Shown: piece after piece, positions 52,945 through 64,000 of the stretch
Position numbering within the stretch: the stretch's first letter is position 1
Layout of the letters: every line of letters starts with the position of its first letter
From: Candidatus Methanophagaceae archaeon
GTDB lineage: Archaea; Halobacteriota; Syntropharchaeia; Alkanophagales; Methanospirareceae
Direction of reading: 5' to 3'
Assembly (NCBI GenBank): GCA_003194435.1
Contig: PQXC01000011.1
Span: 9,433 to 73,432 of the forward strand
DNA length: 64,000 nt
Made by a program: the position numbers and the translations under genes
The notes under the pieces: model-generated
Databases searched by the model: none
What the model saw: only the letters and a program-made list of their open reading frames with translations
Told to the model about the DNA's origin: nothing

Positions 52945-53232
52945 CTATTGCTGGCGTTCCGACTGCCAGTCTGCACGCAGGCTTCTTAAAGGTGGGTGGT
53001 CTATCTCGTTCAGTTCACGCAGCCACCTCAAAATTGTATCCTCTGCTCTGGTGTGCGTTTGCGATAGAAGACCGTCCCAAAGGTCTATGTTGAATGTCCG
53101 CCCGCAGGTCTTGCACTGGTAACACTGGACACCTTTACGAGTCTTACCGCTCTTTTTTATGTTCCGTTGGTGCTCACTCTGGATCTTCCCGAAATCAAGG
53201 TAATTCGGGTTGGGACAAAATTCGCCTGCCAT
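52945..53232 (-). mobile_element. degraded IS1-family transposase (InsA-like Zn ribbon/HTH)
   Basis: FCPNP..G....NI.K.G.T..G.Q.Y.CKTCGRTF; a shifted frame gives TFGTVFYRKRTPEQ; EDTILRWLRE follows an apparent deletion. Confidence 0.7.
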
Positions 53233-53253
53233 CCTACCTTAGTCCGGGTTTAA
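53231..53253 (-). CRISPR. orphan partial CRISPR repeat
   Basis: ATCCTACCTTAGTCCGGGTTTAA = 23 consecutive nt identical to the array repeat, 175 bp from the array. Confidence 0.9.
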
Positions 53254-53428
53254 AAACCTTTTCTTTGAAAGAAAAGCTTTACCATCAAACTTTCTTAAAA
53301 AGAAAGTTTAATCAAAGAACCAGAGCTGTTTTTACTTCGGAAAAAAAGAGAGGCGAGCTTTGTTTTTTTATTCCCTGTCTTGCTATAGGCGGGGAAGGTA
53401 TCGGAAACCCCGAAGGGGGTTTCTGATT
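53254..53428. repeat. 175-bp hairpin-rich insert (REP/MITE-like)
   Basis: Palindromes at 53254-53280, 53287-53309 (AAACTTTCTT-AAA-AAGAAAGTTT) and 53400-53427 (ATCGGAAACCCC-GAAG-GGGGTTTCTGAT). Confidence 0.65.
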
Positions 53429-53889
53429 GTTTCAATCCTACCTTAGTCCGGGTTTAACCATGTTTTTAGTGAAACTTTATATCGAACTAAAAACTTTCAA
53501 TCCTACCTTAGTCCGGGTTTAACACAGTTAGCATGAAATCCGGGTTTAACTATGTACCAGAGCTAAATATCCAGCTACTTGCTACAATCTTTCAATCCTA
53601 CCTTAGTCCGGGTTTAACGGAAAAGAGTTTATATTGATGTGGTCTATTACTATCTTTCAATCCTACCTTAGTCCGGGTTTAACGGAAATACTATGCTGAT
53701 AATAATGTTCCCATTTACTCTACATTCTTTCAATCCTACCTTAGTCCGGGTTTAACATAAACATGTTGGTCATTAAAGAAAACCAGTTCCATCCTTTCAA
53801 TCCTACCTTAGTCCGGGTTTAACTTTTATAGCAGAAGAGGAAAAGCACCTTCCCGCAATCTTTCAATCCTACCTTAGTCCGGGTTTAAC
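53429..53889 (-). CRISPR. CRISPR array, 30-bp repeat GTTAAACCCGGACTAAGGTAGGATTGAAAG (crRNA sense)
   Basis: Full repeats start at 53429 (1 mismatch, trailer), 53494, 53589, 53654, 53727, 53794, 53860; partial repeat at 53539-53550; spacers 35, 15 (truncated), 38, 35, 43, 37, 36 bp; ATTGAAAG 3' handle indicates minus orientation. Confidence 0.97.
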
Positions 53890-54084
53890 AGCCCCCGAAA
53901 TCGCCCCTTTTATGCCTTCGCTACACTCTCCCCGCCGCACTTCACTACCTCCATCTGGGATATACAATAACCCTCTTCATATATAAAGATCCACGACTCT
54001 TTTCTATAAAGGTATTGGAAAAGGGCATCCCAAAGGTCAACGTAAACCTCCCCGAAGCGAAGCGGAGAGTTTGGCTCGGCGGCA
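53890..54084 (-). promoter_or_regulatory. CRISPR leader with candidate TATA box
   Basis: Non-coding region next to the invariant end of the array; TTTATATA on the minus strand at 53980-53987; GC hairpin near 54044-54072 after the cas3 stop. Confidence 0.65.
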
Positions 54085-56217
54085 TCATATTATGTTATTC
54101 GCCTCTTTTCTTACACCGTATGTTTCATCATAAAATACATCTACAATAGGGAAACCCTCCTCTACCGGTATTTTAATCATCCAAATAGGAACAGGAACAG
54201 TATATTCTTTTATTTCAGCAAATATTTCTCTTTTTTGTGTGTATGTCTCTTCTTTTCTCATCTTTTCATATAGTTTCTGGACATAATCCCTATAGATACT
54301 TGGTATAACAAGTCTTGTGAATTCTTCTCTGAATTTAAGGAGTCTCTGAGCGAATTCGTCATCTATACGCCAAGAATATAAGAAATTTGTATTTTCATTC
54401 CAGGTTTCTAATAAGTTGTATATCTCTCTCCGTTTTACTCGTGAGAGTTTAGCTACTTTATCATATTCTTCTATCAATTGAAATTCATTCTCCAGATTAG
54501 CTCCTTCTAAATCTTTCAATAATCCCCATGCATTTGTGATATCGTCTTTCTCGTATGGATACCTCTTTTTGTTTTCTATCTCAGATGGAAAAGTAACCCA
54601 AACATTTATCTCTTCTGTTTTATTCTTATACCTGTTCACTCTGCCAAATCTTTGAACAAGGGCTTCTAAAGGTGCACATTCGGTAACCATAAAATCAAAA
54701 GATATGTCAAGAGAAACCTCTACAACTTGTGTAGCAACCAGAATAAAACTTTTCTTCTCTCTTATCCATCGGTTAATTCTGTCTTCCTTTTCACAACGAT
54801 GTTTGTAAATAAAACGCGAATGTAGCAATTCTATATTTAATTTCAAGTTCAACTCTGATAGTAAATTCTGCAGTTTTTCAAACACTTTTTGCGATTTTTC
54901 AACTGTATTGCATACAATAGCCATTCTAAATGGTTTTCTGCTTGCTCTGTAAATTTCAACAATTTCATCAACAACATCAAGAATGTCCTTTTCTTTAAGT
55001 CTAAACATAACTCTACTTCTATTTCTAAATTCCTCATTCAGCCACAATTTCTCAACTTCCTCTAAGAGGGTTTCAAAGTGTTCTTTAAGTAACGAAGGAA
55101 AAGTTGCAGACATTATACATAATCTCAGGCTGTAACTCTTGGAAAATTTTTCAAGGAAATAGGAAAGGATGTATAGCATATTCTGGGAAAAGGTGTGGAC
55201 TTCATCAAGAATAATCACAGAGTTTCTTAGATGTGGGCGTTTTAAAAAGTATTTTCCAACTTGAAGGAAAGTCAATAACAACTGGTCAAGTGTCGTAATA
55301 ATAACAGGTTTAGCGAAATAGGAAGAGAACATTAATTCTTTAAAGTCGCTCTCTTCTCTTTTTATCGCCTCAACGTCGGCATAATAGAAAAATTCTCCAA
55401 CATTTTCCTTCCCGAAGAAAGTGCAAAGGTCATCATAAAAACTCTTTATTGAAGTGATCGTTGGTAGGACATAGATTATTCTTGAACCTTTGCCTGCAGC
55501 ATACGAAAGCGATGCGGCTGTTTTACCCCATCCTGTGGGAGCTCTTATAAGCAAATGTTCTTTTACTTTGCTCAAACCTAACTGCGTTTGAAGGTCCCTA
55601 TTTCTGGTTTCAAGTCCTTTCTTCTGGATTTTTCTTAATATCCATAGTCTTAAATCTCCAACATTTTTGTTCGGATTGCATATCCTGTAATTTGTCAGAT
55701 TATTTGCTGAAAGTATGTCTGCGATTTTAAAAAGTCCATAAGCGTCAGATAAATCCACTTTAAGGGCTGTATCGAGTTTGGATACATATCTAAATAGATT
55801 CCTTCTCCAGCTTCCTAAATCATCATCAATCCGCTCTTTTTCCTTTTCAGGTGCTTCGTTTCTTATCCGTAGCATATCTCCGTCTTCCATTCTCGTTAGA
55901 GTTCCGTGATGCTTTAGTATAAACAATCCTAAAAGAGGATATTTTTCCAATTCTTCTTTATCCTTATTGTATAGTGTAAGAAATGAAAGAGGGGAATGGG
56001 GAGGATTATTCCTGTTCTTTACATTCCATTCGGCTTTAAGTTTTCCTAAGTCATGATAATAGCAAAGAATCTCAGCGAATTCCTTGTATTCCGTTAAATT
56101 ATAAAATTTGAGAAACTCGTGAGTTAATTTCTTACACTCCTCAATGTGGTTGCCTAATTTCTTTCCTTCGTGCGATTCTTTACTCCAGATTTCCTTTTCT
56201 AAATCTTTCAACATCAT
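54085..56217 (-). CDS. cas3: Cas3 HD nuclease-helicase
   Basis: L.NH, YHDLGK, HSPLS, KHHG, ADILSA (HD domain); APTGWGKT, DEVH, MSAT, CNTV, LHSRF, ATQVVEVSLDI, QRFGRVNR. Confidence 0.97.
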   Translation of the reverse strand: MMLKDLEKEIWSKESHEGKKLGNHIEECKKLTHEFLKFYNLTEYKEFAEILCYYHDLGKLKAEWNVKNRNNPPHSPLSFLTLYNKDKEELEKYPLLGLFILKHHGTLTRMEDGDMLRIRNEAPEKEKERIDDDLGSWRRNLFRYVSKLDTALKVDLSDAYGLFKIADILSANNLTNYRICNPNKNVGDLRLWILRKIQKKGLETRNRDLQTQLGLSKVKEHLLIRAPTGWGKTAASLSYAAGKGSRIIYVLPTITSIKSFYDDLCTFFGKENVGEFFYYADVEAIKREESDFKELMFSSYFAKPVIITTLDQLLLTFLQVGKYFLKRPHLRNSVIILDEVHTFSQNMLYILSYFLEKFSKSYSLRLCIMSATFPSLLKEHFETLLEEVEKLWLNEEFRNRSRVMFRLKEKDILDVVDEIVEIYRASRKPFRMAIVCNTVEKSQKVFEKLQNLLSELNLKLNIELLHSRFIYKHRCEKEDRINRWIREKKSFILVATQVVEVSLDISFDFMVTECAPLEALVQRFGRVNRYKNKTEEINVWVTFPSEIENKKRYPYEKDDITNAWGLLKDLEGANLENEFQLIEEYDKVAKLSRVKRREIYNLLETWNENTNFLYSWRIDDEFAQRLLKFREEFTRLVIPSIYRDYVQKLYEKMRKEETYTQKREIFAEIKEYTVPVPIWMIKIPVEEGFPIVDVFYDETYGVRKEANNII

Positions 56218-56854
56218 CAACACTCCACACAGCCGTTCCATTTACTGTTTTTATCGGCTCTTTTATCTTGAATTCCACTTTAAAGCCTTGATAAAAGAAT
56301 GTGTTTAAGTACAGAACTCTTATTATTTTGCTCCCCTCCGCAATCTGAGAAAAACCAGCAATCATATCTGCTGGAATCATGCCTTTTGCTTCTGTTTTTT
56401 CCATAAATTCAGCTTTGTCTTCGTTTTTTATGTCTCTCAAGAAAGAGTCAGAGATCCCTCCGTAAATATCAAATTCAAAGTCCCTCTTTTCGATTCTCTT
56501 TTTTAATTCCTCAATAAAACTTTCTTTTGCATAAACACCAATCCTATAATGCGGCTCTATCAAAAACTCGAAATCTTCAACTGTTCTTGTGAACATTCTA
56601 TTCCCTTTGTCCCAAGGCATTAGTGTTGCTTTTTCAGTAGCAAGCCCTTTAAAATCGCACAGTTCTGCCCCTACAATAAGATCATTTTCTTTTGCAAATT
56701 TTCCTGATTCTTCTCGTTCAACACCAAAAATTGCACCGAGAATGCCCCAGATAACTGTTGGTGGGGGTAGAAAGTAACTCGATCTGAATTTCTTTGTCTC
56801 ATGCCGCTTAAAATGGGCTGTGAAAAAAGAGATTGAAAATGTATGTGCTTGCAT
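56180..56854 (-). CDS. cas5: type I Cas5 (I-A/I-B-like)
   Basis: AHFKRH..R.SY.LPPPT...GILGAIFG, EFLIEP.Y, YGG.S; start moved to ATG 56854, 5 bp after the cmr3 stop. Confidence 0.88.
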   Translation of the reverse strand: MQAHTFSISFFTAHFKRHETKKFRSSYFLPPPTVIWGILGAIFGVEREESGKFAKENDLIVGAELCDFKGLATEKATLMPWDKGNRMFTRTVEDFEFLIEPHYRIGVYAKESFIEELKKRIEKRDFEFDIYGGISDSFLRDIKNEDKAEFMEKTEAKGMIPADMIAGFSQIAEGSKIIRVLYLNTFFYQGFKVEFKIKEPIKTVNGTAVWSVDDVERFRKGNLE

Positions 56855-56859
56855 GGTAT

Positions 56860-57834
56860 TTACTTTTCGCATTCTTGCAGGTTTAATTCTATACAGCCAT
56901 CCCAATTTAATACGCAATCTACCTTCTCTTGTAACACAGTTCCAGGAGAGAAATAATAAATTGGACTTGAGATAACTTCTCCCGGCCTTGTATGGTTTTT
57001 ATCCTTCTCTCCATTTTTCAACTTTAGAGGGTCATAATATCCTCGTCCAGTAAGTAGCTCTACATCACCTTTGAACTTTATCTTTCTACTGTATCTCAAA
57101 TGGGCAAGTAATGGTTTATTCTCCCTACATTTTATCCTAACCTCACCCTCGCAGTACTCATCATGATTGTTGGATTTCCTTATACAATCCAGCGGAAAGT
57201 TTACTCCATCAACCGAATCAAGTAAAACATGCCCAAAACCATACTTAGACTCACCACCCAAAAACAATTCCGAGATTATGTTGAATCCATCAATAAAAAT
57301 CCCATCAGGCCTTTTTTCTAAATTATGTTGTTCTATTTCTGCACCCCTCTTAATCCAGATACATCCGGCAATCATCACTGGCTTTATATCTCCATTCTCA
57401 TCTCTAAACCTGCTGTTTATAAACTCAATCTCATGCAGGCTCTTATCCTTTGCAGTTCTGGTTTTGTCTTCTATACCTGTGGAAACAATGCTTCCTATAA
57501 ATCTATGCTCAAACTCTGCCTTTGTTATATTTCCGTATTTCACTCCTTCGTCTGTATAGCGGGGAAGATAGATTGTTTTCCCATCATAAAGATAGAAATA
57601 TGAAAACCTGAAATTCTCCATAACTTGCTTACCGATTTCCCTGTAATTGTTTGCCGTAGGATTCTCACATAGATGCTCTGTTACCCTCTTTGTTACAGCG
57701 CCCCACAAGTTTCTTCCGGGAACATAATACCGTGTAGGTGAAACTACAGAACCCTTAAAGGGCATATATCCAATGTGAAGTGGGCTTTTTAACTTAAAGA
57801 CCACATTTATTTTTCCCCACTCATCCTCACTCAT
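56860..57834 (-). CDS. cmr3: type III-C RAMP, Cmr3 (Cas5-group) position
   Basis: LKSPLHIG..TRYYVPG.NLWGA.T, ST.I....TA....LHE.EFI, LGGESKYGFG. Confidence 0.75.
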   Translation of the reverse strand: MSEDEWGKINVVFKLKSPLHIGYMPFKGSVVSPTRYYVPGRNLWGAVTKRVTEHLCENPTANNYREIGKQVMENFRFSYFYLYDGKTIYLPRYTDEGVKYGNITKAEFEHRFIGSIVSTGIEDKTRTAKDKSLHEIEFINSRFRDENGDIKPVMIAGCIWIKRGAEIEQHNLEKRPDGIFIDGFNIISELFLGGESKYGFGHVLLDSVDGVNFPLDCIRKSNNHDEYCEGEVRIKCRENKPLLAHLRYSRKIKFKGDVELLTGRGYYDPLKLKNGEKDKNHTRPGEVISSPIYYFSPGTVLQEKVDCVLNWDGCIELNLQECEK

Positions 57835-58219
57835 TTTTATCCCTCTTTGCCCTTGCATGATACAATGCATAGGTCACTGTCCGCTCAAGAAGTTTCTTCA
57901 TAAAGAGGAGTTTATCTATATCTATCGCAACTTCCCGTAGGTCATTACAAAATCCATCAAAATCTTGGCTAAAAGATTTGTTACTTTTCAAGAAATAATT
58001 GCTCAATTTTACATGTGTGGTTTCATCTTCCTTATTGAAAAGTTCAACCAATTCTTTTCTCACATCTCTTGCATTCTTTTCAAGCCAGAGAAACATTGCA
58101 TAAACGCCATCTTCCTGTAAAACTCCAAGTGCCTTTCTCAGATTGCTTTCAAGATTGGAATCGCTGATTTTGCCTATCTTCTGACCGTATTCCATGCATC
58201 TATAATCAAGATTGAGCAT
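57827..58219 (-). CDS. cmr5: type III-C small subunit Cmr5 (Cas11)
   Basis: NLD..C...G..I, ALGVLQEDGVYA.FL.L, L.F.K.LLERT..YALYHA.A. Confidence 0.8.
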   Translation of the reverse strand: MLNLDYRCMEYGQKIGKISDSNLESNLRKALGVLQEDGVYAMFLWLEKNARDVRKELVELFNKEDETTHVKLSNYFLKSNKSFSQDFDGFCNDLREVAIDIDKLLFMKKLLERTVTYALYHARAKRDKNE

Positions 58220-59159
58220 CTGTCTCACCTCCATTTCCATTGTTATTCCCTAAATCAATCTCCAGTCTTCCAAATCCCCTTGTCCCCATCCCACCTATGC
58301 CAAGATTCCTCAGATAAGGAGAGACAGCACTGATTATTTTATCGACAACATCCGTGTCTATATCTTTTTGTTTTGCCAGAGCCTTATCTACACCAATTTC
58401 AAATCCAAGCACCGCGCCTCTTGGTATCGCTTCATAGGCGAATAAAGCACCCTCTGCTGCTGTTCCCGTCTCTGGGTCTATTCTTACAGATGTCCTTACT
58501 TCAAGGTTGTCATTTACAATATGAGAAAAGAGTTTATCGGAGACAACAACTATCCTTTTTACCCAGTTATCTATCTTTTGTGGTAAAGCAATCTCTTTTC
58601 CATCCTCAGGCTTTTTAACTTCAAGCAACAGCCAGCCAAGATTCAGGTATTCATCAGTGTTTTTCTCTCTAGGATTCAGTTTTCTATCAGTGTCTATCCC
58701 TTTAATTGCATATGCTTCATTGCCTATTTCATCTGGAATCTTTATGTTTTCTCTATTTTTATCTTTTATTTCCCCAAACCAGTACCCAAGCAGTTCTTTT
58801 GTCGTAATCCACACAGTTCCCTGGATTGAGGAAACAGGAAATAGGATTATCTGTCCATCGTAGAACTGCAAGATACCTTTTTCTGTTTTGTTCTCTCCGG
58901 GTTTACTTCCAAATACACTTTCAATATCCACATCTCTGAACTTCTGTTTCTCTTCTTTCTTTTTATCATCCTCTTTTACAATCTCTGCAAATGTCCTTAC
59001 AACACCAGCGATTGAAGTTCCCGGTATCTTCGGCACATCTGTCGCAGGGTCCCTCACAATTGTATTGTCCACCCTTCCCAGTCTATAGCCACCTGCACCG
59101 ATATGTATCGGGTCAAGCGCTCTTGCATACACCCTTTTTGGTTCCAACTTATTATTCAT
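58206..59159 (-). CDS. cmr4: Cmr4 (Cas7-group backbone RAMP)
   Basis: DPIHIGAG...G.VDNTIVRD..T..PKIPGTS..G..R, RTSVRID..TGTA..GALF.YE, GIGGMGTRGFG. Confidence 0.92.
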   Translation of the reverse strand: MNNKLEPKRVYARALDPIHIGAGGYRLGRVDNTIVRDPATDVPKIPGTSIAGVVRTFAEIVKEDDKKKEEKQKFRDVDIESVFGSKPGENKTEKGILQFYDGQIILFPVSSIQGTVWITTKELLGYWFGEIKDKNRENIKIPDEIGNEAYAIKGIDTDRKLNPREKNTDEYLNLGWLLLEVKKPEDGKEIALPQKIDNWVKRIVVVSDKLFSHIVNDNLEVRTSVRIDPETGTAAEGALFAYEAIPRGAVLGFEIGVDKALAKQKDIDTDVVDKIISAVSPYLRNLGIGGMGTRGFGRLEIDLGNNNGNGGETDAQS

Positions 59160-62079
59160 TTTCTTCACCTCTATATTTTGTTACATGCCTGAAAAGAATA
59201 ATCGTATCAAGTAAAAGTCCATTAATAGCAGAGTTTACAAGGAAAAATTTAGTCTCTTCTCTCAAATTATTCCACTTTCTGTCGAAGGCATCTTTTAAAA
59301 TGGCTTCTGCAAACTCCATAAAGACAACTCTCTTACCTCCATCTTCAATATCTCTCCATTCCCTCAATTTTGATGTTAGCATCTCTTCAATAAAGTTTAT
59401 CTGGGATAAAGAAAGATTTTCTGATAAGATGTCCCATAACTCAAGCATCTCTGAGACCTGATAAAAATAGTAAGGCCTTCCGCTAAACAGTTTATAATCC
59501 TCTCCGCCCCTATTTTTGCCCTTGTAATATATGCCATACCTGTCGGTTGTTCCCAAAAGCAACTCAAAATCAAAATATCCTGGATATAAATGGAAAATTT
59601 CCCCCTTAGAAATAGAGGATAAAACATCCAGTGTATATTTTTCACCCGCTTCTACCGTTTTCGTTGGATAAAAACTGTAATACCATCCATATCTATGCCC
59701 ATCTACATTCCACCAGGGATTCATGGGCTCCTGAGTTTTAAATTCATCCCCTTCAAGCATCCTTTTTTCCGCATCAAGGAGAACATAGAGCGGAAACTTT
59801 CTTTTTGCCACCAACAATTTTATGTTCAATGGCAATTTCCCAAGCACCTTCTCAAATCTCTCATTGTAGAGTTTTGTGATTAACTCTGTTATTTTCATTG
59901 AATCTGATGCAGGAACTATCAAGCGAAGGGATAGCGGAGAGCGATTGATTTCAATCAGAGGATAGTATTCTTCTGTTTCTATACTCTTTTCGTCAGGTTT
60001 TATTTTCTCATCAGAATCGGAACTAAATTTTAATAAATTTTTATCCGGCTCGTCTTCCAGTGCGAGGTAGTCAAATCCATTCTTCAAAGCCTCTTTGACC
60101 GCCTCTTCTCCTTTTTTCTTCTTAAACTTGGATTTGTTGTTAAACTTAAACTCGAATTTCTCCAAGGACTCTATCGTATAGAACTCGCCATCCTTATTGT
60201 GAAAAACAAGGAGATTTTGTGGCTTCAAATTATCTATTTTGGGCTTTGAATTATCTGTTTTGAGTATGTAAGTCGTAGTATCTTTCAATTTTTGCTTCAA
60301 ATCACTATTGCTTACGGTAAACCTTACCCTTCTCCATTTATTGCTATAAATCTCATCCCGTATTTTCCTTACAATTAAATCAAAAAATTCCTCTGTCTCC
60401 TTCCATATCCGGTATAAGCGAGCTGGGGATGGGTTCTGGGTGAAGAACCAAGATAGAATATTATTTGCATCATCTTTTATATCGTCTGGAACATTATCTG
60501 CATTTCCATCTTCCATAAAACATTCAAGTAATGTTTTCACTTCTGTTCTCCTTTGATTTTCTGCAATCCACTTTGCAATATTTAAAGCGTCTTCTTCAGG
60601 ATTACCTGTTTGCTTAATACTTCTATCTTTTAAAATATTCTGAGTGGTTTTTTTCTTATACCTCTCTCCATTTTTCCAATCCTCAAAACTCTGGCTATAG
60701 AGTGTTCCGATCATCGTGCCATCAAGCCAGTTATCAAGACAAAAATTCAGAGAAATTAAAGCAACCCTATTGTTTTTATCTGCAATCTCATCAATCCATA
60801 CTGTATTCTGCCTGTTTGAAAGCCATTGCTCAAGTCTTCCCATTCTTCTATCCTCACAAATCTCGCATCTTTCCGCCTTTTCATCCTTCGGTCTTATCCG
60901 GCAAACGGGGCAGATGTCTATTTTTGCGTCTTTCCTTTTATCTCTTATCTTGTTAGCCAATCTCTCAAATTCGGTTTCCATATCAAAATTACTTTCAATA
61001 TCTATCTCTTCCCGTTCTTTTTCTTTATCGTCTTTTTTAACAAACAGAGTTGGGCTTATCTTTGGTATCTTCCTCTTTTCAGATGCAAACTTCAACTCCT
61101 CTGAAATAGTGGTAAGTGTTGCGGATGCCCTACTCAATGTAAAGAACGGCCAGAGTTCATTATTACTTTCCCTGTAAATGATTTCTAAGGCCTTTTCTGC
61201 GCATTCTCTGGCAAGCTCTTTTGATTTGTCATTTAGATTTGGGAAGGTGAAATAAATTCCATTCGTATCCTCATAGATTGTATTTCCGATGGGAGCCGCA
61301 TCTTCAAATTCCTTCTTTAATTCCTTCTTGATATTCTCAATAATCTCTTCCCTCGCCTTGATCTCGGCAATCTTTTTCCCTCTGTTTATAAATTCTATCC
61401 CATCCCAGCAAACACCAGATATTCTCCATTGTGGATTTTCGATATCTATATTTGCTCCACAAACTTTTGCCGCCAGAAGGGATTTAAACAGTGATGCAGT
61501 AGAATATGAATGGTCCCAGAGGGTAACATCGTTTGAGGGTATTCTTGTCTCTCCAAGGGCATGGGAGAAATACACTTCTAAAGTTTTCATAAGAGATTCT
61601 CTAAAACAAGTGGGGCTTATCGTCCCTGAGATATAGCTCTTAAATAATCCGATCAGAATGTCTTCCAGATTCTCAAATCTCTTCTGGAGACATACAAGGT
61701 CTATCTTCTCCTTTTTATATCCAAACGGAGAGGCTATCCAAGTGTCCGCTAAATACTGCTTCTTCCTCACAATACCTTTATCGTCAGCAGAGTCTTTCTT
61801 ATCGCATTTTTCCAAGCATTCTAAAATAAAGCCTTTCGCATCATGATGATATCTAATTAAATCATAAATTGTTTTTCCTTCACCTTCACTACCAATATTT
61901 ATCTTGAGATTTTTAAAATGACCTATGAGTTCACCATTAATAAATTTATCAATCTCTCTCGCATGATGAAGTCCTTTTATATTTTCTACAGATTTGCTTT
62001 TAACAAAATCAAGATGCAATTTTCCAATATCGTGGAGCAATGCACCTATTTCTCCTATTAATATAGCATCTCTATTCAT
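59152..62079 (-). CDS. cas10: Cas10 of type III-C (Csx11-like): HD domain, degenerate Palm
   Basis: EIGALLHDIGK, HH, NDVTLWDHS, Zn finger CPVC..CEIC, NPSPARL.RIW; no GGDD. Confidence 0.88.
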   Translation of the reverse strand: MNRDAILIGEIGALLHDIGKLHLDFVKSKSVENIKGLHHAREIDKFINGELIGHFKNLKINIGSEGEGKTIYDLIRYHHDAKGFILECLEKCDKKDSADDKGIVRKKQYLADTWIASPFGYKKEKIDLVCLQKRFENLEDILIGLFKSYISGTISPTCFRESLMKTLEVYFSHALGETRIPSNDVTLWDHSYSTASLFKSLLAAKVCGANIDIENPQWRISGVCWDGIEFINRGKKIAEIKAREEIIENIKKELKKEFEDAAPIGNTIYEDTNGIYFTFPNLNDKSKELARECAEKALEIIYRESNNELWPFFTLSRASATLTTISEELKFASEKRKIPKISPTLFVKKDDKEKEREEIDIESNFDMETEFERLANKIRDKRKDAKIDICPVCRIRPKDEKAERCEICEDRRMGRLEQWLSNRQNTVWIDEIADKNNRVALISLNFCLDNWLDGTMIGTLYSQSFEDWKNGERYKKKTTQNILKDRSIKQTGNPEEDALNIAKWIAENQRRTEVKTLLECFMEDGNADNVPDDIKDDANNILSWFFTQNPSPARLYRIWKETEEFFDLIVRKIRDEIYSNKWRRVRFTVSNSDLKQKLKDTTTYILKTDNSKPKIDNLKPQNLLVFHNKDGEFYTIESLEKFEFKFNNKSKFKKKKGEEAVKEALKNGFDYLALEDEPDKNLLKFSSDSDEKIKPDEKSIETEEYYPLIEINRSPLSLRLIVPASDSMKITELITKLYNERFEKVLGKLPLNIKLLVAKRKFPLYVLLDAEKRMLEGDEFKTQEPMNPWWNVDGHRYGWYYSFYPTKTVEAGEKYTLDVLSSISKGEIFHLYPGYFDFELLLGTTDRYGIYYKGKNRGGEDYKLFSGRPYYFYQVSEMLELWDILSENLSLSQINFIEEMLTSKLREWRDIEDGGKRVVFMEFAEAILKDAFDRKWNNLREETKFFLVNSAINGLLLDTIILFRHVTKYRGEENE

Positions 62080-62855
62080 TTCAATACACATTTTCCCACC
62101 TCCCCAAGCACGGTTGAAAACACATCTTCAAATTCTGGCAGTGCTTTTAACTGATGTTTCAAAGAGCTTTCCCATGCGCTTTTGAAGTCATTTTTCCTTT
62201 GCTCAAAACCTTTAATATCCATCTCAACATTTTTCCTTCTGAACTTCTCAGGTAATATCTCAAAGACTTTCTTTTTTTCCACTCTATCCCATAGATACCA
62301 GACGTCATAGAGGTCTCGTGGTCTTGTTCTCTGAAAGAGACTCCTTATTTTCTCTGACAGAATCTCTTCAAGGGTGTATACCCTTATTTCAGCCTCCAGA
62401 GTATCGGAATACGGATGAATTATTCTTCTCACACTTAAAGGTAAAAGTATCTTCTCGTTTTCTTCATTTGTTATATCTATCTTTATTTTTGTCCTGCTTT
62501 CTCCACGCTGCATAATCTGAAAGTAAACACTGATCTCAAAGCCATTTTCGTTTTCCTGTGTTTCAATATCATCACTAAAGTTTATCCCGCTTTCCTCCCT
62601 CGCTATCGCAACTGCATTTTTTATCCTATTCGTCAGTTCATCATTCTCTACGCCTTCAAGTAAAGTAAAATCAAGGTCATCAGAGAATCTGTAATCGCCA
62701 ATATATACTTTCCTTATACCAGTTCCACCTTTAAGCAGCAGTGGTAGAGATGATAATGCCTTCAATAGCCAGTTCTGTGCATAGTCTCTTTCAATGGTTG
62801 ACACAGGAACGCCCTGTTCTCTTGCTTTTTCCCTGATCTCATTTTGCGGGATCAT
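62076..62855 (-). CDS. abiEii: AbiEii/AbiGii nucleotidyltransferase toxin (type IV TA)
   Basis: IERDY, LKGGT.I.K.Y...RFSDDLDFT, EI.SEKIR.L.QR..PRDLYD. Confidence 0.92.
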   Translation of the reverse strand: MIPQNEIREKAREQGVPVSTIERDYAQNWLLKALSSLPLLLKGGTGIRKVYIGDYRFSDDLDFTLLEGVENDELTNRIKNAVAIAREESGINFSDDIETQENENGFEISVYFQIMQRGESRTKIKIDITNEENEKILLPLSVRRIIHPYSDTLEAEIRVYTLEEILSEKIRSLFQRTRPRDLYDVWYLWDRVEKKKVFEILPEKFRRKNVEMDIKGFEQRKNDFKSAWESSLKHQLKALPEFEDVFSTVLGEVGKCVLK

Positions 62856-63610
62856 TCAATCCTCCCCATAGTCTTCTCATCCAGATTTATAATCAATCTC
62901 CATTTTGCATTTTTTCTACCCTGTTTCGGCATTGTGGGGTCAAGGTAGAGATAATTTCTGGTTTTTACCTCAGGCAATTTAACATAGATGCCCAGTGTTT
63001 CAGATAGATAACCGAGACGCCTGATAATGCCCGAATTTTCAATTCTCTTCGCATATTCTGAGAGTTTTTCCGTGTTATACTTCCCTCTCTTCAATGCCTT
63101 AGCCACTTCTATTATTCCACCGCAGTATTTCGGCTTATCCAGACAGTCAACAATGGTTTTCTCTCTGTTTGTAATATAGACCTGACTCTCATCTATCCAT
63201 TCCTTCTTCAAACCAAAGAACTTTTTTTCTGCGATTCTGACGATCCGATACTCCACACCGAATATATTCAAATTCTGTTTCTTCTTTCTTGCAGTTGTTT
63301 GAATAAAGACTGTAGTGGGGATTTGCTCTGTCAGGCCGTAATGGTTCAGGGAACTCCAGTAGGCGATTGCATAGGGGTTGATAAGCATTGAGGCAATAAG
63401 AAACTCATGGAGGGTATATTTTCCCTTTTCTGCACCCAGAGGGATAATCATGTATTTTCCTTTCTCAATCCTTTCAATCCATCCTTGCTTTTCAAGGCGG
63501 GAGAGAATGACCTTTGTTACAGAATAATCGGATCCCAGGATATCCTGTGCATCCCTGAAGGTAAAGGTGCTCCCTTTTGATGCCAGTTTGTCAATCACAT
63601 TGATTCTCAT
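62852..63610 (-). CDS. abiEi: AbiEi antitoxin (wHTH plus C-terminal domain)
   Basis: L.RL.K.GWIERI.KGKY, Y.SL..YGLTEQIP, T..EKT.VDCL.KP.YCGGI.EV, RLGYL. Confidence 0.9.
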   Translation of the reverse strand: MRINVIDKLASKGSTFTFRDAQDILGSDYSVTKVILSRLEKQGWIERIEKGKYMIIPLGAEKGKYTLHEFLIASMLINPYAIAYWSSLNHYGLTEQIPTTVFIQTTARKKKQNLNIFGVEYRIVRIAEKKFFGLKKEWIDESQVYITNREKTIVDCLDKPKYCGGIIEVAKALKRGKYNTEKLSEYAKRIENSGIIRRLGYLSETLGIYVKLPEVKTRNYLYLDPTMPKQGRKNAKWRLIINLDEKTMGRIE

Positions 63611-63612
63611 TT

Positions 63613-64000
63613 CTATGCACCATCCTTAACATTATTGTTTACTTTGGTGTATAGCATTGAGAAAATATCCTTTTTATCTTCAGGACAAACAACAACATTA
63701 TCTTCTTTCAATTTCTCAATCACCCCAAAACCAGAGGTCTTCTTAGCAGAGAATCCATAGGTGTAGAACATAAGTTTCAGTGCTTCAACAAGAAATCTAA
63801 GATCCTCTTCAACCTCTTCTCCTTTGAAATCTTTTCCTCCTGGATATGGGACGTAGAGAAGATAAAATTCTCCTTTTGCTCCTCTTTTCATAACTTCAAG
63901 TGATATGGGTGATTTACCTTTTACAGGTGTCCTGGTATCTCTTTTTAGCGGGGTTATTACATCCCTTTCCGGCTTCTCTTTAAAGAATGTCGGGAAAAAG
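63613..64000 (-). CDS. cmr6: Cmr6-type RAMP, 3' part (gene starts beyond the window)
   Basis: Frame open to the window end: FFPTFF...DVITP..R.TRTP..G..PI.LEV...F.LLY...YGFSAKKTSGFG. Confidence 0.75.
   Translation of the reverse strand, partial: FFPTFFKEKPERDVITPLKRDTRTPVKGKSPISLEVMKRGAKGEFYLLYVPYPGGKDFKGEEVEEDLRFLVEALKLMFYTYGFSAKKTSGFGVIEKLKEDNVVVCPEDKKDIFSMLYTKVNNNVKDGA

Follow-up and report, generated by a model that had tools for sequence, protein, structure and literature searches.

Gene content of the locus

The stretch analysed here, referred to below as the window, comprises 64,000 nucleotides (nt) of the genome of a Candidatus Methanophagaceae archaeon (assembly GCA_003194435.1), namely positions 9433-73432 of the 74,057-base contig PQXC01000011.1. 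Its right-hand part carries a CRISPR locus in which the genes of a type III-C effector module lead directly into the cas5 and cas3 genes of a type I system. We put at roughly three in four the probability that a mobile type I operon has here received a type III-C module at its cas7-cas5 junction, so that two co-expressed systems would be served by one array. Nine genes, all on the minus strand and densely packed, extend from 54085 to the window end and form one apparent operon. In the order of transcription they encode a Cmr6-like protein, AbiEi, AbiEii, Csx11, Cmr4, a small subunit, a Cmr3-like RAMP protein, Cas5 and Cas3, and they are followed by a leader and seven repeats. The first-pass annotation of this DNA had described a single tight operon running from cmr6 to the array, and both the open reading frames (ORFs) and the family scans bear this out. 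Below, the names L0xx denote recovered loci and G0xx genomes, while Cas5x and Cas3x are our labels for the Cas5 and Cas3 of the window.

The large subunit of the type III part (59152-62091) is Csx11, the Cas10 of subtype III-C, which scores 712.4 bits against TIGR02682 (cut-off 248.95) over residues 3-970. It is followed by Cmr4, the type III Cas7 backbone (58206-59168; TIGR02580, 139.3 bits against a cut-off of 87), and by a 137-residue protein (57827-58240) which has no family match and was assigned as small subunit from its Cas11 position; this protein is conserved in all III-C relatives. The Cmr3-like (Cmr3/Csx10-like) RAMP protein, a type III homologue of Cas5 (56860-57870), gave weak RAMP and Csx10 matches, and its position is kept in relatives. 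At the head of the module, a Cas7-family RAMP protein of 309 residues (PF03787, 1.5e-19) occupies the cmr6 position; its gene runs from 63613 to the equivalent of window position 64542, beyond the window end, and the full ORF is found in locus L001. In an alignment of 11 Csx11 sequences, the LHDxGK (HD) motif and four cysteines are conserved. A GGDD-like motif is not; a GGED at residue 862 is confined to the window protein.

The type I part begins 5 nt after the stop of the cmr3-like gene, at the ATG that is the most plausible start of cas5x (56180-56854, 224 residues). Cas5x matches the type I Cas5 families TIGR02593 (34.1 against 17.8) and PF09704 (29.5 against 23), and reaches 59.7 bits with Cas5h (TIGR02592), under the cut-off of 97. 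Although a search of PDB sequences with a Cas5x profile gave no match, the AlphaFold model (predicted local distance difference test score, pLDDT, 88) found its best PDB matches in 8fcj_A (I-B), 4u7u_K (I-E), 8g9s_N (I-C) and 7tr6_P (I-A); the predicted fold is thus closest to the Cas5 subunits of type I Cascade. Cas3x (54085-56241, 718 residues) is an HD nuclease fused to a helicase (TIGR01587, 257 bits; TIGR01596, 51.3 bits) with intact motifs: HD at residue 63, GWGKT at 237, DEVH at 346 and SAT at 378. The cas3 ORF overlaps the end of cas5, and the ORF coordinates agree with the first-pass annotation on this overlap as well as on the 5-nt gap behind cmr3. Two constituents of a type I module are present, a Cas3 with HD and superfamily 2 helicase parts and a Cascade-type Cas5. 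The ratio of nonsynonymous to synonymous substitution rates for cas5x and cas3x lay between 0.02 and 0.23 in 14 of 15 pairs, the remaining pair being saturated. Since both genes are under purifying selection, we regard them as working genes and not as debris. The possibility that Cas5x is a Cas5d-like nuclease which replaces Cas6 in the processing of precursor CRISPR RNA (crRNA) was set aside: the complete relative L058 has cas6, and the present genome has a cas6 on another of its contigs, C18.

Between cas3 and the first repeat lies a leader of about 195 nt (53890-54084, minus strand), recognised by reading the sequence. The array itself (53429-53889, minus strand) has seven repeats of 30 nt which end in ATTGAAAG, the last one ending in ATTGAAAC. 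Five spacers measure 35-43 nt, and the interval 53524-53588, of 65 nt, contains a 12-nt fragment of the repeat. A lone degenerate copy of the repeat is situated about 175 nt beyond the array (53225-53254, minus strand), and one further copy was observed in the same genome at position 216175 of contig C11, apart from any array detected. The leader and array of L030 have a matching layout, with 21 repeats. Rfam reported nothing at its gathering thresholds in 53000-64000.

The first-pass annotation had the operon begin at cmr6, and this had to be corrected. The start of the cmr6-like gene lies 83 nt from the end of the contig, and in its terminal 84 nt the contig codes for the last 28 residues of a Cmr1 (96% to Cmr1 of L012 by tblastn); the operon therefore runs on into unassembled DNA. 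The III-C order cmr1, cmr6, csx11, cmr4, small subunit, cmr3 is present, with only these last 28 residues of Cmr1 in the contig, and it is found uninterrupted, with no AbiE insert, in relatives L013-L017 and L090-L091. The contig ends inside cmr1, 625 nt past the window. As the first-pass annotation stated, no cas7 or cas8 lies within the window, but the absence is uninformative because the DNA upstream of cmr1 is unassembled. Public hydrothermal-vent sequencing runs contain the same stretch, and Logan contigs in two of four runs extend about 780-840 nt past the contig end, which is too short to pass cmr1. In all four runs the summed contig depth falls several-fold over L001:13754-13998, which spans the end of cmr1 and the part of the cmr6-like gene coding for the N-terminus, and all four show the same alternative continuation from L001 position 13998, which reads like the cmr1 end of L079. 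It appears that the operon head exists in two or more variants side by side in the vent populations.

The III-C module of the window is interrupted between cmr6 and csx11 by an AbiEi antitoxin-like gene (62852-63610; PF13338, 3.3e-10, 40.3 bits; also PF09407) and an AbiEii nucleotidyltransferase toxin-like gene (62076-62855; PF08843, 5.2e-34, 118.6 bits), the end of which overlaps the start of csx11 by 16 nt. As adjacent, overlapping AbiEii and AbiEi genes, they probably form an AbiE type IV toxin-antitoxin pair, with AbiEii as the predicted toxin. The pair is polymorphic: one vent-run contig joins cmr6 to csx11 (L001 11497 to 13036), skipping 1538 nt (window 62065-63602), and holds 31 other letters at the join. 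The pair is present in L012 and L079 and absent from L013-L017, G021 and G202. In L012, AbiEii and Csx11 share one frame with no stop between them, giving an ORF of 1276 residues.

The cas7-cas5 junction in related loci

Cas5x has 91 relatives in a large protein collection, and 88 of them are 57-98% identical to it. Those that carry a name come from both Bacteria and Archaea (Calescamantes, Thermodesulforhabdus norvegica, Micrarchaeota, Thermosphaera and Jordarchaeaceae). We retrieved 52 hydrothermal metagenome loci with an alignment of 31 Cas5x sequences and compared them by family scans and by tblastn, using the window proteins and the loci's own proteins. In each of the 35 loci that extend beyond cas5x, cas3x follows it. 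The junction of cmr3, cas5 and cas3 singled out by the first-pass annotation recurs in this set: immediately 5' of cas5x there is a III-C cmr3-like gene in 28 loci, type I cas7 in 14, a III-B module with csx3 in two and an HD/RAMP module in five, three loci being too short to tell.

The Cas7 of the 14 un-nested loci is of the Cst2/DevR type (TIGR02585, on which the Cas7 of relatives scores 96-118 bits against a cut-off of 72.75). In 11 of them cas8 and/or cas11 stand before cas7, and the other three contigs are too short; the genes concerned encode proteins of 107 residues (cas11) and of about 420, or 423, residues (cas8). One of the loci, L058, has cas6 and a nucleotidyltransferase gene ahead of cas8-cas11. 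At the other end, cas3x of L056 is followed by cas4, cas1b (TIGR03641, 464 bits), cas2 and an array, and cas3x of the nested locus L059 by cas4. Put together across relatives, the order of this scaffold is cas6, nucleotidyltransferase gene, cas8, cas11, cas7, cas5, cas3, cas4, cas1, cas2, array. Cas7 and Cas1 make the scaffold I-B-like, although its small subunit is encoded by a gene of its own. Since cas5x and cas3x follow cas7 in the operons of relatives, Cas5x and Cas3x can be regarded as regular components of a type I operon.

The contigs of eight loci include the left boundary of the nested module (L038, L039, L050, L051, L059, L061 and L071 with III-C, L076 with HD/RAMP), and in all eight type I cas7 stands directly before its first gene, be it cmr1 or the HD subunit. 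Thus, no visible left end of a type III module with cas5x-cas3x lacks cas7 (0 of 8). At these ends cas11 is also present in six loci and cas8 in five; the remaining contigs start inside cas7 or immediately ahead of it. Inspection by eye shows the final 5 nt of cas7 at the start of L034 and, at that of L049, a peptide resembling the Cas7 C-terminus. The gaps at both junctions measure 1-5 nt. In the un-nested locus L035 the stop of cas7 is followed, after 2 nt, by the ATG of cas5x; in the nested locus L061 an identical cas7 stop and 2 nt are followed by the ATG of cmr1, and cas5x begins 1 nt behind the cmr3 stop.

The nested modules are of several kinds. The III-C large subunits all score above the TIGR02682 cut-off and belong to at least four lineages which are 25-31% identical to one another (the window type, L039/L059, L051 and L034/L050). 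The two III-B sets (L049 and L073) comprise cmr1-6 with csx1 or a gene for a 302-residue protein, then csx3. A further, unclassified module, found in five loci including L033 (2-3890), L070, L074 and L076, has a large subunit of about 600 residues, two proteins of 215 and 194 residues without family, and a Csx7-like RAMP protein of about 300 residues; in L076 the large subunit starts with the HD motif ELHDIGK. Between the last stop of the insert and the ATG of cas5, loci of this HD/RAMP type carry a copy of about 10 nt of the cas7 3' end, which is a hint of cassette-like recombination. Across these loci identity to the window proteins amounts to 71-90% for Cas5x and to 63-87% for Cas3x. It is exactly at the cas7-cas5 junction of this far more conserved scaffold that at least four deeply diverged III-C lineages, III-B and another module are found, a result which was unexpected.

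The Cas5x tree (34 rows) suggests that neighbours are exchanged: the 31 rows that carry a label show 12 or more switches of context, with the III-C classes being provisional and with strong support on just 5 of 30 inner branches. Three strongly supported clades are mixed in this respect. One (support 99) unites window-type III-C with the HD/RAMP locus L033, the second (96) the un-nested L035 with III-C loci L034/L036, and the third (97) the III-B locus L049 with III-C loci L048/L051.

Weighing the interpretations

In our proposal, a composite locus is represented in the window by its downstream two thirds and has as its scaffold a type I operon that moves horizontally. Into this operon, precisely at the 2 nt separating cas7 from cas5, a whole III-C effector module (cmr1, cmr6, csx11, cmr4, small subunit, cmr3) would have been placed; in the window this module itself carries the AbiEi/AbiEii pair. 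One transcript would then give rise to two separate crRNA-guided complexes. The first would be a Cascade (Cas8-Cas11-Cas7-Cas5) which recruits Cas3 for DNA degradation dependent on a protospacer adjacent motif; in the second, the Csx11 complex would bind target RNA and act through RNA cleavage by Cmr4 and through the HD nuclease of Csx11, without cyclic-oligoadenylate signalling. Both would be loaded from one array, after cleavage by Cas6 leaving an 8-nt ATTGAAAG handle. Such a mode of action agrees with published descriptions of composite I-B and type III loci and of III-C (PMC7145637, PMC10120712, PMC11229360, PMC12669027 and PMC3973734). In the window genome, cas8-cas11-cas7 would be expected directly upstream of cmr1. 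This corresponds to one of two readings offered by the first-pass annotation, namely that a III-C cassette entered a type I-A or I-B operon between its cas7 and cas5 genes; the relatives, nested and un-nested, speak for it, while the upstream DNA of the window genome itself is unassembled.

Several observations weigh against this interpretation. No match to cas7, cas8 or cas11 of the scaffold type was found in the 93.5%-complete assembly with family-specific hidden Markov models and PF01905. The cas8 and cas11 of the scaffold were assigned by position only, and a PDB sequence search with a profile of the Cas8-position protein gave a single chance-level match (E = 0.29). In three of the 28 III-C-nested loci (L061, L066 and L068) cas5x is frameshifted, by decay or by assembly error. 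The III-C lineage of the window occurs without cas5x-cas3x in eight genome loci (L012-L017, G021, G202), and the seven metagenome loci that carry it (L030-32, L065, L069, L075 and L079) all end before passing cmr1. As this lineage stands alone elsewhere, the window could be a secondary recombinant.

The locus seems to be foreign to its surroundings. No close Cas5x was found among 400 other genomes of the phylum, a set that included six from the window organism's genus and 54 from its family and yielded two distant matches of 33%. No match to Cas5x was obtained in 72,556 plasmid records, and 10 pattern matches in IMG/VR viral contigs were not confirmed. G021, of the same genus, shares the flank of the window up to about 52857 at 92-94%, but without the CRISPR island; its III-C genes are 78-82% identical in DNA to those of the window, and the flank that adjoins its module matches contig C28 of G000 at 93-94%. 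It follows that the island looks acquired and that its III-C part is no simple vertical orthologue. Tracing the island border through G021 gave a fragmented picture only.

The first-pass annotation had also pointed to the rest of the genome as a place to look for cas6, cas7 and cas8. The single cas6 found there lies on C18 (about 159.7-166.7 kb; L029:5757-12722), in a separate Hmari-type I-B effector module consisting of cas6, cas8b, cas7, cas5b, cas3'' and cas3'; its cas7 and cas8b are not of the scaffold type. The N-terminus of this cas7 is in another frame. No array lies in the 20-kb stretch examined around the module, and no cas4 or cas2 was seen among the adjoining ORFs scanned. Two further CRISPR-associated loci were observed in this genome. 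A type III-A locus is split over contigs C37 (1-5000) and C33 (about 9.5-14.1 kb; L009 and L010), with csm1 in three ORFs (141, 373 and 302 residues), then csm2-csm4, and with csm5 and a CARF gene adjoining two short arrays and the reverse transcriptase of a group II intron. A type VII set lies on contig C4 (about 41.4-46.1 kb; L011:7455-12097), where the beta-CASP nuclease Cas14 (NF045584, 1114 bits against a cut-off of 800) has two RAMP proteins downstream.

A different explanation for the window would be that the type I head was lost or never arrived, and that cas5x-cas3x stand idle or are borrowed by the I-B Cascade of C18. This would account for the scaffold genes not found in the assembly, for the presence of a second effector module on C18 without an array or adaptation genes, and for the fact that no cas1 was found in the whole genome; in the same-genus G021 and the same-family G202, moreover, the window's Csx11 lineage stands alone, without cas5x-cas3x and without type I cas7. 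However, the remainder of cmr1 is absent from the whole assembly too, and public contigs continue past the contig end, so the absence of a gene from the assembly says little. Furthermore, cas5x and cas3x are intact, under purifying selection and 98-100% identical to copies in other samples, none of the eight relatives with a visible left end has a nested module without cas7 upstream, and the C18 module is supplied with a cas5b and a cas3 of its own, Cas5x being only 27-32% identical to Cas5b over about 130 residues. We therefore consider such a remnant unlikely.

The other reading of the first-pass annotation was a true I/III chimera, in which a signalling-dead Csx11 complex has acquired Cas5x as an adaptor and through it recruits Cas3x as a DNA-destroying arm. 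The tight coupling of cmr3, cas5x and cas3x, with a 5-nt gap and overlapping ORFs, would fit this, as would the retention of the cmr3-cas5x junction with four Csx11 lineages. III-C systems, according to the part of PMC11229360 that we could consult, lack a cyclase and known effectors, and in L012, which has the closest Csx11 (68-85% by segment), a different helicase-nuclease of 866 residues (L012:9145-11745) overlaps the end of cmr3, at the spot taken in the window by cas5-cas3. The latter resembles restriction endonuclease/helicases of the BPTD_3080 family (NF046055, E = 1.2e-89, below the curated cut-off). On the other side, cas5x and cas3x belong to a type I operon equipped with cas8-cas11-cas7 of its own and occur un-nested in 14 loci, the III-C module already holds a Cas5 homologue in its Cmr3-like protein, Csx11 retains its own HD nuclease motif, and the modelled fold of Cas5x is nearest to Cascade Cas5. 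Since cas5x-cas3x are also found behind III-B modules with Csx1/Csx3 and behind the HD/RAMP module, the link is not specific to signalling-dead complexes. A chimera is thus highly improbable, and the claim of a hybrid subtype is not supported. For annotators this is a warning, because a type III module with cas5-cas3 at a contig edge mimics a new hybrid subtype but is not one.

Returning to the nested module, we find two effector gene sets interleaved in one operon, with the type III part often exchanged at a single junction. Loci that combine type I and type III are believed to confer layered immunity on the basis of a single spacer memory. If the nesting is as we propose, these loci would provide a natural system in which to ask why two modes of interference are co-expressed and how whole effector modules move, as well as compact thermophilic operons encoding both activities. 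One may go further and suppose that the cas7-cas5 junction is a dedicated docking site for the gain, loss and swapping of whole type III modules as cassettes, given that at least four Csx11 lineages, III-B and the HD/RAMP module are found there in a scaffold that is 63-90% identical across Bacteria and Archaea. We offer this only tentatively and think the odds are rather against it. If it held, it would point to selection for co-translation of DNA-targeting and RNA-sensing complexes from one message, possibly with physical or regulatory cross-talk, and to a modular organisation of class 1 CRISPR immunity that has gone unrecognised.

Comparison with known systems

Subtype I-D also combines a Cas10-family large subunit and a Cas3 helicase in one operon, and its signature genes are those for Cas10d, Csc2 and Csc1. 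The window differs in its weak match to TIGR03158, the I-D-type Cas3' (28.4 bits against a cut-off of 69.1), in its full set of type III subunits and in a Csx11 large subunit without matches to I-D families; no other I-D family was detected among the nine proteins.

The III-C gene order in the 2015 classification is reportedly cmr1, cmr6, cas10, cmr4, cmr5, cmr3. The window resembles this subtype (MTH326-like, with Csx11 as Cas10) in that Csx11 scores above the curated cut-off, the gene order is retained and the cyclase motif is not conserved. The sections available of PMC11229360 describe III-C as having no cyclase sites and an HD domain in half of the systems, and those of PMC12669027 and PMC11229360 define it by an inactivated cyclase, with no GGDD in the Palm domain. 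The HD motif and the small subunit without a detectable family fit these descriptions, and that in PMC3973734, as far as the accessible portions go. The differences are the AbiEi/AbiEii genes between cmr6 and csx11, the location of the module inside a type I operon and the array, which lies 2.4 kb downstream.

Several effector modules in one place are also a feature of Pyrococcus furiosus-type loci, where Cmr, Cst and Csa modules lie side by side and share Cas6 and arrays. Those modules are juxtaposed and are not known to be interleaved within one operon.

A close parallel is offered by composite loci. Loci in which I-B and type III share a single adaptation module and have I-B-type repeats have been described (Bernheim et al., PMC7145637), and an example of adjacent I-B and III-C has been given (Shmakov et al., PMC10120712), both as seen in the available parts of these papers. 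As described there, such loci share with ours a type I and a type III module on one array with I-B-type repeats (the ATTGAAAG handle), and a type III module without its own array, cas6 or adaptation genes. In the full-text literature searched, which left most subscription journals and supplementary tables outside, no account turned up in which a type III module is placed between cas7 and cas5. In so far as the portions consulted show, the published cases are ones of co-location or adjacency, whereas here the type III genes lie inside the type I effector operon, with gaps of 1-5 nt and with at least six modules. Composite I-B/III-C loci are already known, and what seems to be new is a type III module placed inside the type I effector operon at the cas7-cas5 junction, a site taken by at least six different modules.

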